From the NCBI RefSeq assembly GCF_041886205.1, contig NZ_CP169029.1: a stretch of 64,000 nucleotides of DNA, one strand, 5' to 3'. Under the pieces are notes generated by a model that was given only the letters and a program-made list of their open reading frames with translations, was not told the origin of the DNA and did not search any database. The position numbers were made by a program, and so were the translations under genes. Position 1 is the stretch's first letter. Every line of letters begins with the position of its first letter. Shown piece by piece: positions 2,044-33,795 of this stretch. This stretch comes from Escherichia coli (GTDB lineage: Bacteria; Pseudomonadota; Gammaproteobacteria; Enterobacterales; Enterobacteriaceae).

Positions 2044-2618
2044 TGGCATTCAGAATGAGTGAACAACCACAGACCATAAAAATTTATAATCTGCTGGCCG
2101 GAACTAATGAATTTATTGGTGAAGGTGACGCATATATTCCGCCTCATACAGGTCTGCCAGCAAACAGTACCGATATTGCACCGCCAGATATTCCGGCAGG
2201 CTTCGTGGCTGTTTTCAACAGTGATGAGGCATCGTGGCATCTCGTTGAAGATCATCGGGGAAAAACCGTCTATGACGTGGCTTCCGGCGACGCGTTATTT
2301 ATTTCTGAACTCGGTCCGTTACCGGAAAATGTTACCTGGTTATCGCCGGAAGGGGAGTTTCAGAAGTGGAACGGCACAGCCTGGGTGAAGGATACGGAAG
2401 CAGAAAAACTGTTCCGGATCCGGGAGGCGGAAGAAACAAAAAACAACCTGATGCAGGTAGCCAGTGAGCATATTGCGCCGCTTCAGGATGCTGCAGATCT
2501 GGAAATTGCAACGGAGGAAGAAATCTCGTTGCTGGAAGCATGGAAAAAGTATCGGGTATTGCTGAACCGTGTTGATACGTCAACTGCACAGGATATTGAA
2601 TGGCCAGCACTGCCGTAG
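2043..2618 (+). CDS. tfaQ: Tail fibre assembly protein (191 aa)
   Basis: ATG overlaps the stf stop (TAATG); protein [16 protein letters not shown]... matches the Tfa family. Confidence 0.9.
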
Positions 2619-13968: not shown

Positions 13969-14085
13969 GCTCCGTTTAACATTCATTGAGAAAACTGATG
14001 CTACTGTGTCAACGATCCGTTATCAGTGCAGGAAAATGCCTGTTAGCGTAAAAGCAAAACACAAATCTATCCATGCAAGCATTCA

Positions 14086-14111
14086 CCGCCGGTTTACTGG
14101 CGGTTTTTTTT
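14086..14111 (+). terminator. Rho-independent terminator downstream of dgcZ (CCGCCGG-ttta-CTGGCGG + T8)
   Basis: Stem-loop followed by eight T read directly. Confidence 0.55.
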
Positions 14112-14118
14112 CGCCGTC

Positions 14119-14159
14119 ATAAAAATCAGGCCCCTTGTACACAACTGTAACAAGGGGCC
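14119..14159 (-). terminator. Rho-independent terminator for mgtS (GGCCCCTTGT...ACAAGGGGCC, U-run on minus strand)
   Basis: 10-bp perfect stem then TGATTTTTAT on the minus strand. Confidence 0.55.
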
Positions 14160-14186
14160 GGTTAGGTGAGGGATTATCTCCGTTCA

Positions 14187-14282
14187 TTAGTCATCCCATT
14201 TGTGGCTGAAATACGCGGCCAGAAAACCAGAAAATAAAATTATTCCCAGTACGGCCATAAAAACATTCATATTACCCAGCAT
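14187..14282 (-). CDS. mgtS: Small membrane protein MgtS/YneM (31 aa: MLGNMNVFMAVLGIILFSGFLAAYFSHKWDD)
   Basis: Hand-translated; below the ORF-track length cutoff; GGAGG Shine-Dalgarno 6 nt upstream of the ATG; single predicted transmembrane helix; matches the known E. coli small protein. Confidence 0.8.
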   Translation of the reverse strand: MLGNMNVFMAVLGIILFSGFLAAYFSHKWDD

Positions 14283-30044: not shown

Positions 30045-30803
30045 TTACTCCGTACGGCGGGCAACAATAAAAAGACGCGGAAATGCCAGCAGTATCTGTC
30101 CGTTCTCTTGCAGTGGATACTGCTCTTCCAGCATCTGATGGTAGCGCGTAAGAAAAAGCTGCTGTTCGCTCTCGGTCAGATCCTGTAACCACGGACGTAA
30201 TCCAGTGGCGGTCACCCAATCGATAATCGCCTGGTGCGACGGCATCTGGTGATAGTAGGTGGTTCGCCAGATATCGACCTCACATCCGGCTTCGCTCAAA
30301 ATATCGTAGTAAGCATGAACGCCAGCCAACGGCTCACGCCCGCGATCCGGGTAGTTTTGTTCCCAGGCAACTTCGCGCATGAGCACATGGGTCGGCTCCA
30401 GCCAGTTATCTGGCATCTGTACTGCCAGCACGCCCTGCGGATTAAGTAAAGAAACCAAGTGAGGAAACAATTCGTAGTGGTCGGGCAGCCATTGCAGTGA
30501 GGCATTAGCAAAAATCAGATCGAGTGCCTGTTCCGGTTGCCAGTTGCGGATGTCTGCTTCCACGAACTGGCAGTCTGGCAAAGCACTGCGCGCTTCAGCA
30601 ATCATCGCCGGAGACGAGTCGATGCCTGTTATCCTGGCCGCAGGCCAACGTTGATGCAGCAGGGCGGTGCTGTTACCTGGGCCACAGCCAAGATCGGCAA
30701 CGTATTTGATATTCTCCAGCGGCACTCTGGCAAGCAGCTCCACCGCCGGACGCGATCGTTCAGCGGCAAAGTGCAGATATAAAGAGGGGTTCCAGTCAGA
30801 CAT
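30045..30803 (-). CDS. tam: trans-Aconitate 2-methyltransferase (252 aa)
   Basis: SAM-dependent methyltransferase motif [10 protein letters not shown]. Confidence 0.9.
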
Positions 30804-32606
30804 TTATTTACTCCCGTCAGCGCGTTACCCCAATTGTAGATAAAACTGTTGACATCCTCCACGCCCTGAATGACGAGGATCCTGCTACGTTCAGGCTGTC
30901 GCCTGAATCATTTCGGTGGGTTCCTGCTTCAACGGGCGGCCTGACTGCACCATCCCTCCACAGGCAAGAACGGCGTGCCCCGCCGCTAAAATGTTACGAG
31001 CGCCATTTACATCGGCGTTCGCTGTATATCCACATACCTGGCATCTGAATTTACTTTGTGACAGGCGGTTCTCTTTCGCTGTATGACCACAGTACGCGCA
31101 ACGCTGGCTTGTATACGCTGGCGGAACAGCAAGCACCTGACCGCCACGCCAGAGCTGCTTGTACTCAAGCTGGCGGCGCATTTCATACCAGCCCTGATCC
31201 AGTATCGAACGGTTTAAACCTGATTTTGCCCGGACATTGCGCCCCGGCTGGCTGACCGTACCCGCTGCTGACTTTGACATGTTGCTGACCTTCAAATCCT
31301 CAATGACTATCATTGCGTGGTTTTTGCTGACGGTCGTTGTGACTTTGTGAAGGTAGTCCCTGCGGATATTTGCGATACGGGAATGCAGTCGCTGTATTTT
31401 GCGTTTCTGCTTCTGCCAGTTGTTGCTGAATTTGACCTTGCGGCTTAACTGTCGCTGAAGTCTCGCCAGCTTCTTCTGGTTTTTCTGAAAACTGTTTACA
31501 GGCTCAAAGACTGTACCATCTGACAGCGTGGCGAGTTTAGCCACGCCAGCATCCAGCCCGATCATTGATGCTGAAGGGTGAACCGGAGTTGATACTTCAC
31601 TTTCTGTCTGAATACTGATGTGCCACTTACCGCAGGACTGGCTGACCGTGACATTTTTCACAACACCCGTGACCTGACGGCTATTCCGGTAGCGCATCCA
31701 GCCCAGTTTCGGCAGAAAAATACGGCTGTTTTCCTGATCGAGCTTAACGCCCTGCGGGTAGCGGAATGCATCATTCTGTCCCCGCTTTTTGAATCGGGGA
31801 AAAGCAGCCCGCTTCTGGAAGAAGTTTTTGTAAGCCCGCTCAAGGTCTTTCAGTGACTGTTGCAATGGCTGTGACGGGGCATCTTTAAGCCATTGCGTTT
31901 CAGTGGCATTTTTCCACTCAACCAGCCAGGAAGCCATTTTCCCGTAAGGGATGTATTTATTACCGGCCTCATGATTCTCATTCTGACGTGCCAGAGCACG
32001 ATTGAAAACGAAACGACATGCGCCTGCGAAGCGCCTCATTTCACGCTCCTGTTGACCACCGGGTCTTAACTGGAATTTAAATGCCTGTAGTCGTTTCACA
32101 GGTCAAATTATATTTTGGTCTGTGAAAAAAGAAACCGATATCCGGCGTGGAAGGCATTGTGTTTTCCTGAAGCATGTTCACATGGTCTTTGTCACCAAAT
32201 ACCGACGCCAGATTTTTGACCATGACGCGACAGAAAAACTACGCACTTACTTTTCAAATGTATGTGCTGATTTTGAAGCTGAACTGGTTGAAATGGATGG
32301 CGAACCAGATCACGTCCATTTGTTAATTAACTATCCTCCCAAACTGGCGATATCCAGTCTGATAAACAGCCTCAAAAGCGTATCGGGTAGGTTACTGCGA
32401 CGAGATCGACCAGATATTGCAGTCAGGTATTACTACAAAGGCGTTTTGTGGAGTCCTGGCTATTTTGCCAGTAGCTGCGGAGGTGCGCCAATATCCGTCA
32501 TCCGCCAATACATTGAACAACAGCAAACACCTGGTCAGGTGGAAAACCGCGCCTTATATCCCCGCCCTGAAGGACGGGGTTTTACGGCGCACCGGATAAA
32601 TTCGCC
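30804..32606. mobile_element. IS200/IS605-family insertion sequence with divergent tnpB and tnpA between tam and lsrG; ends approximate
   Basis: Y1 HuH transposase gene and TnpB gene back to back (starts 22 bp apart), occupying the whole 1.8-kb interval between tam and lsrG; imperfect hairpins at both ends. Confidence 0.8.
30891..32099 (-). CDS. tnpB: TnpB (IS605 OrfB), RuvC-like RNA-guided nuclease, 402 aa, apparently intact
   Basis: RuvC-I (IGLDAGV), RuvC-II ([13 protein letters not shown]), zinc finger (CAYCGH...[18 protein letters not shown]) all present, no internal stops. Confidence 0.9.
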
Positions 32607-32688
32607 TCACGGCATCAACCCATTGAACAGACGTTTTTTACGCGGCCCGGTCATTAAAGATTCCAGTTTCGCGACACAGGTTTTGTAG
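32122..32688 (+). CDS. tnpA: TnpA, IS200-type Y1 (HuH) transposase; C-terminal extent uncertain (ORF runs to 188 aa and overlaps the lsrG 3' end)
   Basis: HuH motif (HVHLLINY) and tyrosine-containing C-terminal region (YIEQQ); typical family members are about 140-155 aa. Confidence 0.8.
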
Positions 32689-32894
32689 TGGGGCGTGGTT
32701 TTATGGAACGCCACTGCGTCTTCATCTTTATAGGCTTCGTAGATATAAAAGCGCGAATTCACTTCCGGGTCCTGTAAGACATCGAAGCGCAAATTGCCTT
32801 CTTCCTGTACAGAGCCCAGGTGGTTCTGGCGAAAAACTTCGATAAACTCGTCAACCTTGTCTTCATGAACGTTAATTTCAACCAGTGTGACGTG
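32607..32894 (-). CDS. lsrG: (4S)-4-hydroxy-5-phosphonooxypentane-2,3-dione isomerase (96 aa)
   Basis: ABM-domain ORF starting [10 protein letters not shown]; last gene of the lsr operon. Confidence 0.9.
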
Positions 32895-32919
32895 CATGTT
32901 TCTTCTCCTTAATCCGCAG

Positions 32920-33795
32920 TTACTGTTTTTCACTCAGATAGAGTTCATATGCCCGATCAGCCGTTTCGTTATGGTGTACCACCGCCTGTACGGCTTTCAT
33001 CATCGCCACCGGATGGTCAGACTGGAAAATATTACGCCCCATATCCACACCAGAAGCGCCCTGATCGATAGCCTGCCAGCACATTTCCAGCGCCTCGCGC
33101 TCCGGTAATTTTTTACCGCCAGCAATAACAATGGGTACCGGACATCCGGCAACAATCCGTTCAAAACCTTTATCGACATAATAGGTTTTGATAATTTGCG
33201 CCCCCATTTCAGCGGCGATTCGAGTCGCGAGCGAGAAATAACGCTGATCGCGCACCATATCTTTGCCCACGCCTGTCACGGCCATGGTCGGCATTCCCAC
33301 TTTCATTCCGGCATCAACCAGCTGAATAATATTTTTGATCGACTGATGTTCATATTCGCTGCCGATATAAACCTGCGCCGCCACCGCGCAACTGTTCAGG
33401 CGCACGGCGTCATCCATCGATAACGCCACGGCTTCATTACTTAATTCCGCCAGAATAGAGTTCGCACCTGACGCCCGCAGTACCACCGGCCTATTGGTCG
33501 CAGGGGGAACTACGCTGCGCAAAATGCCGCGCGTACACATTAATACATCGGCATGTTCAAACAGCGGGGCGATATTTATATCAATGCGTTCAAGTCCGGT
33601 AGTCGGTCCCTGAAAATAACCATGGTCAAAAGCCAGCATCACGGTTTTACCCGTTTTCGGATTAAATATCCGCGATAAGCGTGACTGCATTCCCCAATCC
33701 AGCGCACCGCAACCTTTCAGGGTAAAAGGGATATTTTTTTGCGGTTGATCGGTACGAAAATCTTTACCATCTTTAATATCGTCTAAATCTGCCAT
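32920..33795 (-). CDS. lsrF: 3-hydroxy-5-phosphonooxypentane-2,4-dione thiolase, DeoC/aldolase family (291 aa)
   Basis: Class I aldolase-like sequence in conserved lsr position. Confidence 0.9.

Follow-up and report, generated by a model that had tools for sequence, protein, structure and literature searches.

What lies between tam and lsrG in this strain of Escherichia coli, and can the DNA found there still act as a transposon, as the source of an RNA-guided nuclease, or as both? The locus belongs to a 64,000-nucleotide stretch of contig NZ_CP169029.1 (hereafter the window), in which an earlier note, made without database searches, had placed an IS200/IS605-family element between the two genes. 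The interval very probably holds a full-length copy of the insertion sequence IS609 (IS200/IS605 family, IS608 type) that carries an intact tnpB and is inserted into the 56-bp spacer between lsrG and tam. The ends, the protein-coding genes and the predicted guide RNA are described below, together with the evidence on whether this copy remains mobile.

Identity and Ends of the Element

The ends were mapped by aligning the window copy with six copies located elsewhere, at ydcO, a TetR-family gene, yfeD, yedK, yajI and yeaQ. The sequence common to all seven runs from TTGACATCC (position 30849) to ...CACCGGATAA (32599) and includes a TTAT. This TTAT is target DNA, because the empty site carries it as well: in strain N-01 (L001) tam and lsrG are contiguous, and the unoccupied junction reads GGCGAATTTAT followed by CAGTTTTATC, with the window element standing exactly between the two (on the minus strand, the N-01 spacer reads GGCGAATTTAT followed by CAGTTTTATCTACA). 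The seven-copy alignment and the empty site together define an element of 1747 bp at 30849-32595, of which the minus strand of the window is the top (active) strand. On the top strand the left end (LE) begins with CCGGTGCGCC at 32595, while the right end (RE) finishes in ...GGAGGATGTCAA with its last base at 30849; an identical terminus, GGATGTCAA, is present in 23 relatives in other genera. The element has no terminal inverted repeats and, when the window is compared with the empty site, no target-site duplication, the exact junction bearing out what had been expected for this family.

The motif TTAT (ATAA on the plus strand), located at 32596-32599 on the minus strand, is native DNA directly 5' of LE, as the empty site demonstrates, and is predicted to act as the transposon-adjacent motif (TAM) of TnpB. 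It flanks all seven E. coli copies, with relatives being flanked by TTAT or TTAC. The interval 30804-32606 thus includes 45 bp of native tam leader (30804-30848) and, towards lsrG, a further 11 bp of host sequence (32596-32606). The earlier description of a tnpA-tnpB pair filling the whole interval holds for the two open reading frames, which are both there, but the element is confined to 30849-32595 and the other 56 bp belong to the host.

The assignment to IS609 is based on near-identity and common ends with the insQ locus of K-12 and with a copy labelled by RefSeq. The window element is 97-98% identical in nucleotide sequence to the K-12 insQ/tnpA locus over its entire length, the K-12 counterpart being the insQ locus adjoining ydcO (insQ/ydcM and a tnpA pseudogene), and it is likewise 97-98% identical to a RefSeq copy labelled "IS200/IS605-like element IS609 family transposase". 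The earlier note had proposed a comparison with IS605/IS609-like entries; the family placement stands, although the presence of IS609 in K-12 itself, as insQ, had been overlooked. In E. coli wlxctx60, a Japanese isolate from bear faeces, a sequence 100% identical to the window carries the RefSeq labels "RNA-guided endonuclease InsQ/TnpB family protein" and "IS200/IS605 family transposase". The element is therefore already known: IS609 is catalogued, is present in K-12 and has a tnpB that RefSeq already names as an RNA-guided endonuclease.

The distribution of the element was examined by megablast of positions 30700-32750 against 5426 complete E. coli genomes. Nearly all of these contain a match to the element, 4307 have places with at least 80% query coverage (median of 3 places per genome) and 575 such places are on plasmids. 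Occupation of the tam-lsrG site is far from universal in the species: the empty site, as reconstructed, is found unbroken in 5187 of the 5426 genomes, as it is in N-01, and is 100% identical in an O157:H7 strain, while the tam/RE junction that marks an occupied site occurs in 31. The interval is accordingly an insertion and not a constant part of the E. coli chromosome, as the earlier note had supposed.

The flanking genes, both taken from the open reading frame list, are tam at 30045-30803 and lsrG at 32607-32933, each on the minus strand. The insertion point lies 7 nt past the lsrG stop codon and 45 nt before the tam start, with the element on the same strand as both genes. It places 1.75 kb between them and directs transcription of tnpB and the predicted omegaRNA into tam, which is presumably co-transcribed with lsrACDBFG in K-12.

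TnpB

The tnpB gene (insQ-type; 30891-32099, minus strand) starts with GTG and encodes 402 amino acids; the open reading frame, profile matches and structural alignment all identify it as an intact RNA-guided endonuclease gene. The protein has full-length Pfam matches to HTH_OrfB_IS605, OrfB_IS605 and Cas12f1-like_TNB and scores 384.5 bits against the NCBIfam model guided_TnpB (cut-off 100). Its best natural match among solved structures is the TnpB of ISDra2, which aligns over residues 3-376 against 3-372 with an E-value of 6.5e-57. In the printed alignment D183, E267 and D363 are paired with the ISDra2 residues D191, E278 and D361, and the three are invariant in 20 of 20 translated copies and relatives. 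The zinc finger ligands C334-x2-C337...C353-x2-C356 are all in place. The intact RuvC segments and C-terminal zinc finger that had been reported for this protein are confirmed by the ISDra2 alignment, which reveals no inactivating substitution of a catalytic residue. Tyr336 was considered as a possible zinc finger defect and dropped, since it is also found in the K-12 copy and lies in the gap between two ligands, C334 and C337.

No residue of TnpB is private to the window copy, and each of the nine E. coli copies compared has an unbroken tnpB of 402 codons. One study (PMC12781874) reports the purification of an IS609 TnpB for tests of trans-cleavage. Based on the catalytic triad, the zinc finger and the predicted RNA described in the next section, the window TnpB is predicted to be an RNA-guided endonuclease.

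Predicted omegaRNA and Guide

The scaffold of the omegaRNA is predicted on the minus strand at about 30849-30994, spanning the last ~100 nt of tnpB and a 42-nt non-coding tail that leads to RE. From 63 related loci retrieved, the last 170 nt before RE were aligned for 24 elements from many genera, all of which finish in GGAGGATGTCAA and diverge in sequence beyond it. A structure of six helices was derived with RNAalifold, to which one hairpin across the tnpB stop codon was added by hand and tested by pair counts, RNAalifold alone having failed to recover that hairpin from the 24-sequence alignment. Within the six-helix structure 92.8% of alignment cells are paired, compared with 41-51% when the partners are slid, and compensatory changes are seen in 18 pairs compared with 4-9, a result reached by none of 500 shuffles. 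Helices 2, 4 and 5, all with compensatory changes, fall within the end of the tnpB reading frame or span it, well away from the hairpin bound by TnpA; this location points to an RNA rather than to a DNA hairpin alone. The covariation-backed structure of ~145 nt, extending up to the right end, is consistent with an omegaRNA.

It is here that the first points counting against the overall interpretation arise. For helix 6, the DNA hairpin required by TnpA would account for the covariation equally well. Two Rfam families match the minus strand with scores below threshold: HgcC (RF00062) at 30836-30958, at the 3' end of tnpB, with 23.6 bits (threshold 50), and RAGATH-18 (RF03064) at 30921-30964, coinciding with helices 3 and 4 of the proposed structure, with 28.1 bits (threshold 44.9). 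At these scores membership of either family is not established, but both matches fall at the expected place and on the expected strand, the two motifs being generally linked to the 3' ends of IS605-type orfB genes. The covariance-model search that had been suggested for the 3' end of tnpB therefore gave matches where they were anticipated, with no match inside the element reaching an Rfam gathering threshold. Elsewhere in the window, and unrelated to the element, two Rfam families do exceed their gathering thresholds, namely the Hfq-binding RNA STnc560 (13980-14193, plus strand, 281.9 bits) and IS009 (2386-2584, plus strand, 220.9 bits).

These results bear on a rival explanation, in which tnpB is decayed or inactive in spite of its intact appearance and the 3' structure serves the TnpA DNA hairpin and coding constraint instead of a guide RNA. 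In its favour are the sub-threshold Rfam matches just given and the RNA folds of the tnpB 3' region taken as one sequence, which are no better than shuffles (z -0.78 to -1.6), so that the structure is founded on comparison between elements. Set against this are the ISDra2 alignment, the conservation of the catalytic residues in 20 of 20 sequences, purifying selection on tnpB (see below) and, for the RNA, compensatory changes in helices away from the TnpA-bound hairpin. An inactive tnpB is accordingly regarded as quite improbable, and a working TnpB with its omegaRNA is retained as the preferred interpretation.

The guide is predicted as CAGTTTTATCTACAATTGGG, 16-20 nt long, at 30829-30848 on the minus strand, where the native 5' leader of tam lies directly downstream of RE. 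TTAT joined to the guide sequence reproduces the empty-site allele, which is 100% identical in other strains. Within the window the guide sequence is preceded by TCAA; since TCAA stands where TTAT would be, the occupied allele lacks the TAM. By analogy with published work on other TnpBs, a mechanism may be envisaged in which the tnpB 3' region is transcribed as omegaRNA, the 3' end of which would read into the flank to yield the guide CAGTTTTATCTACAAT.... Loaded with this RNA, TnpB would cut the empty allele, where TTAT adjoins a guide match, and would spare the occupied allele, where TCAA replaces TTAT. Cutting of the empty site could help the element to be retained when it has excised precisely. 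A search of the available literature found no paper directly characterising IS609 transposition or an IS609 omegaRNA.

TnpA and its Lost Stop Codon

The tnpA open reading frame (32122-32688, plus strand) starts with GTG, encodes 188 amino acids and extends into the 3' end of lsrG, which is encoded on the other strand. Its Y1/HUH core comprises 138 codons (32122-32535), as judged from profile matches and the length of relatives. The protein matches Pfam Y1_Tnp over 2-121 of 121 positions (E-value 1.5e-40) and scores 143 bits against NCBIfam NF033573 (cut-off 55). These profiles, along with those of TnpB, support the earlier reading that divergently oriented tnpA and tnpB genes make up an IS200/IS605-family element. 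The TnpA catalytic core is whole: alignment with the transposases of IS608 and ISDra2 identifies the HUH motif as H64-V-H66, and Y130 aligns with Y127 of IS608.

The TnpA of relatives is 138 amino acids long and ends in ...YIEQQQTP(G/S), followed by a TAG stop (11 relatives). Comparison with these sequences shows that codon 139 of the window copy (32536-32538, plus strand) has changed from TAG to CAG. The same CAG is present in all eight E. coli copies examined and in one other Escherichia copy, and no later stop occurs within LE. The reading frame consequently continues into the flank, giving a tail of 50 residues of which 22 are derived from LE (to 32595) and 28 from flanking DNA antisense to lsrG. 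The tail differs at every insertion site, and the variable lengths of TnpA in databases (160-254 amino acids) arise because the frame runs into whatever DNA flanks the copy. In all ten annotated copies checked, RefSeq calls tnpA a pseudogene "missing C-terminus"; this flag results from the lineage-wide stop-loss and not from truncation. The stop-loss, the pseudogene flag and the weakening of RE described in the next section had all been overlooked by the earlier note.

The GTG starts of tnpA and tnpB lie 22 nt apart within a palindromic 34-bp region found by repeat scan (32094-32127; inverted repeat I2). A TATAAT is located exactly 7 nt before the tnpB start and, as seen by alignment, is conserved in 14 of 14 close relatives; a generic sigma-70 scan of the 22-nt tnpA-tnpB spacer reported no promoter. 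The position of the TATAAT suggests a leaderless tnpB mRNA and overlapping divergent promoters.

Subterminal Hairpins and Target Recognition

On the top strand the left end reads TTAT, then CCGGTGCGCCGTAAAA, and then the imperfect hairpin CCCCGTCC-TTCA-GGGCGGGG, with AAAA just before the hairpin. This structure, at 32560-32579 (minus strand; CCCCGCCC-TGAA-GGACGGGG on the plus strand), folds as DNA with -11.6 kcal/mol (z -2.2). At the right end, a hairpin of top-strand sequence CCTCGTCA-TTCA-GGGCGTGG (30859-30878, minus strand) is followed by AGGATGTCAA at the terminus, the final TCAA being shared with IS608. The hairpin sequences of the two ends are repeated in direct rather than inverted orientation (30858-30878 and 32559-32579, 86% identical; repeat family D3). 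Hairpins had previously been claimed for both ends: that of LE is indeed strong, whereas that of RE is degraded in the window copy by T.T and A.G mismatches.

The extent of the RE damage is best seen against K-12. The DNA fold of the window RE hairpin is -2.9 kcal/mol (z 0.08), no better than that of shuffled sequence, compared with -7.7 (z -2.6) for the K-12 copy, and another fold is now favoured over the canonical hairpin. The same hairpin is also the last stem of the predicted omegaRNA beside the guide, and it carries, in addition to the two mismatches, a neighbouring 1-nt deletion upstream; as RNA the stem still forms, more weakly (-11.6 as against -17.8 in the K-12 copy). The two substitutions recur in the copies at yfeD (EDL933) and yeaQ, placing the variant of the window at three loci, and the 1-nt deletion by the hairpin (within 30859-30884) is common to L072, at the same site. 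Because the substitutions are also present at yfeD and yeaQ, they do not obviously block movement.

In the IS608 model, cleavage sites are found through pairing with a tetranucleotide 5' of each hairpin. The left ends of 14 related loci from other genera were compared on this point, BLAST anchoring being used because some loci lack tnpA. AAAA before the LE hairpin accompanies TTAT as target in seven loci and AAAG accompanies TTAC in five, with two exceptions (12 of 14 concordant). This covariation between the fourth base of the target and the LE tetranucleotide fits cleavage-site recognition of the IS608 type. By analogy with work on IS608 and ISDra2, the Y1/HUH TnpA would cut out the top strand in the form of a single-stranded circle and insert it 3' of TTAT, both sites being recognised through the tetranucleotides 5' of the hairpins.

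Mobility and Selection

Whether the window copy can still move is uncertain, given the GTG start, the lost stop and the weak RE hairpin. The remaining points that weigh against a fully active element concern movement, beginning with the RefSeq pseudogene call and the loss of the native stop. Three of nine E. coli copies carry a nonsense or frameshift mutation in tnpA, from which the window copy is free. In most E. coli copies both genes begin with GTG; relatives use ATG instead. The altered RE hairpin belongs here too, as both transposition end and omegaRNA stem. Mutation-accumulation lines of K-12 yielded no transposition of its IS609 (PMC5009759). Between loci, the copies are 25-46 sites apart (1.4-2.6%), a divergence that makes most insertions look old rather than recent.

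Selection was assessed among nine E. coli copies (the window, L002, L004-L008, L072 and L074). The ratio of nonsynonymous to synonymous polymorphism (pN/pS) among them is 0.24 for tnpB and 0.78 for tnpA, compared with 0.165 and 0.086, respectively, across genera, where both genes are constrained. The numbers of segregating nonsynonymous and synonymous sites in the nine copies, 35:37 in tnpB and 18:8 in tnpA, do not differ significantly (Fisher p 0.107). A tnpB under constraint and a tnpA that drifts in E. coli can thus be taken as a hint only.

These observations give weight to the proposal that the copy is immobile as a transposon and that only tnpB and the omegaRNA are under selection, as a selfish retention module or through use by the host. 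The TnpA would then be crippled by its GTG start, by the stop-loss seen in all eight E. coli copies examined and by a 50-residue tail encoded in part by host DNA, and it would act on an RE hairpin that folds no better as DNA than shuffled sequence. Disruption of tnpA in three of nine copies and of tnpB in none, the pN/pS values, the silence of IS609 in K-12 lines and the age of the copies are all in keeping with this. The statistical contrast between the genes is nevertheless not significant, and the window TnpA has a complete catalytic core. Moreover, copies with the stop-loss occupy at least 7 chromosomal sites as well as the 575 plasmid places, indicating movement after or despite the stop-loss, and the weakened RE variant stands at three different loci. 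Immobility is a serious contender that falls somewhat short of an even chance.

A broader suggestion is that IS609 in E. coli is turning from a transposon into a TnpB/omegaRNA module maintained in its own right, because all copies examined carry the tnpA stop-loss, which joins the transposase to flank-encoded residues, the starts are mostly GTG, tnpA evolves near-neutrally and tnpB is intact and constrained. It is considered unlikely at present. Were it correct, transcription of omegaRNA and tnpB would read into tam, cut off from the lsr operon by the insertion.

A Second Allele at the Same Site

Two of the 31 carriers of an occupied site, L073 (2017-02-2CC) and L074 (RMDEC465), have IS609 at the identical junction and with the same TTAT. 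Their allele has a canonical RE, differs from the window copy at 34 positions (~2%) and lies in a different flank haplotype. In L073 an internal deletion leaves 726 bp, and in L074 tnpA is frameshifted. The two alleles are compatible with a single old insertion as well as with two independent ones.

It might be argued from the canonical RE, the 34 differences and the other haplotype that the tam-lsrG spacer is a preferred or guided landing site, reached by independent insertions or by TnpB-assisted homing and not through a chance TTAT. A divergence of 2%, however, also fits a single old insertion inherited by two E. coli lineages, whose flanks are about as divergent; the RE variant could be swapped by gene conversion among IS copies; and merely 31 of 5426 genomes are occupied. 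A favoured landing site is therefore doubtful. L043, where a tblastn match reached residue 185, was considered as another tam-lsrG insertion and dropped, its flank being unrelated.

Significance

Beyond annotation the significance of the locus is slight, as IS609 is catalogued and its tnpB already labelled. What is of use is the definition of the window copy by its exact ends (30849-32595), its TTAT target and its predicted guide, along with the tracing of the tnpA pseudogene flag raised by annotation pipelines to a stop-loss of the whole lineage instead of a truncation. The covariation-backed omegaRNA structure of the IS609 group could seed an RNA family. If tnpB is truly constrained while tnpA drifts, E. 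coli would offer a convenient natural system in which to study the role of TnpB after the transposase fades.

Two relatives merit mention for their own organisation. In Citrobacter amalonaticus (L010, 1417-2752) a derivative of ~1.3 kb lacks tnpA, the first ~60 nt of LE abutting the tnpB start region, and has an intact 402-amino-acid tnpB and a normal RE. In Candidatus Erwinia dacicola (L013) a whole 1752-bp contig consists of TTAT and one element with the final ...GGATGTCAA, pointing to a repeat of high copy number at which the assembly breaks.

Comparison with Known Systems

The closest comparison is the IS609 of K-12, with which the window copy shares its ends, the TTAT target, the divergent gene order, a 402-amino-acid TnpB and the tnpA stop-loss. 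It differs in occupying another, rarer site (31 of 5426 genomes), in having a tnpA without the internal stop present in K-12, and in the two substitutions and adjacent 1-nt deletion of its RE hairpin.

With IS608 of Helicobacter pylori the element has in common a Y1/HUH TnpA with an aligned catalytic tyrosine, a TTAY target 5' of LE, an RE that ends in TCAA, subterminal hairpins in direct orientation and an LE-hairpin tetranucleotide that covaries with the target. In contrast, tnpA and tnpB are divergent as in IS605, whereas the genes of IS608 are co-oriented and overlapping; the target is TTAT, compared with TTAC for IS608; and the TnpA similarity is distant (E-value 5.7e-19).

The TnpB-omegaRNA complex of ISDra2 from Deinococcus radiodurans (8BF8, 8EXA, 8H1J) provides the third model, resembling the window system in the full-length protein alignment with its D/E/D residues and zinc finger, and in an RNA scaffold that overlaps the tnpB 3' end, stops at RE and takes its guide from the flank. 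The two differ in TAM, predicted as TTAT here and TTGAT in ISDra2, and the omegaRNA of the window is inferred from covariation only. As far as sequence comparison can tell, the element shows all the family features that can be tested in silico, resembling IS608 in its transposition and ISDra2 in its TnpB and omegaRNA.

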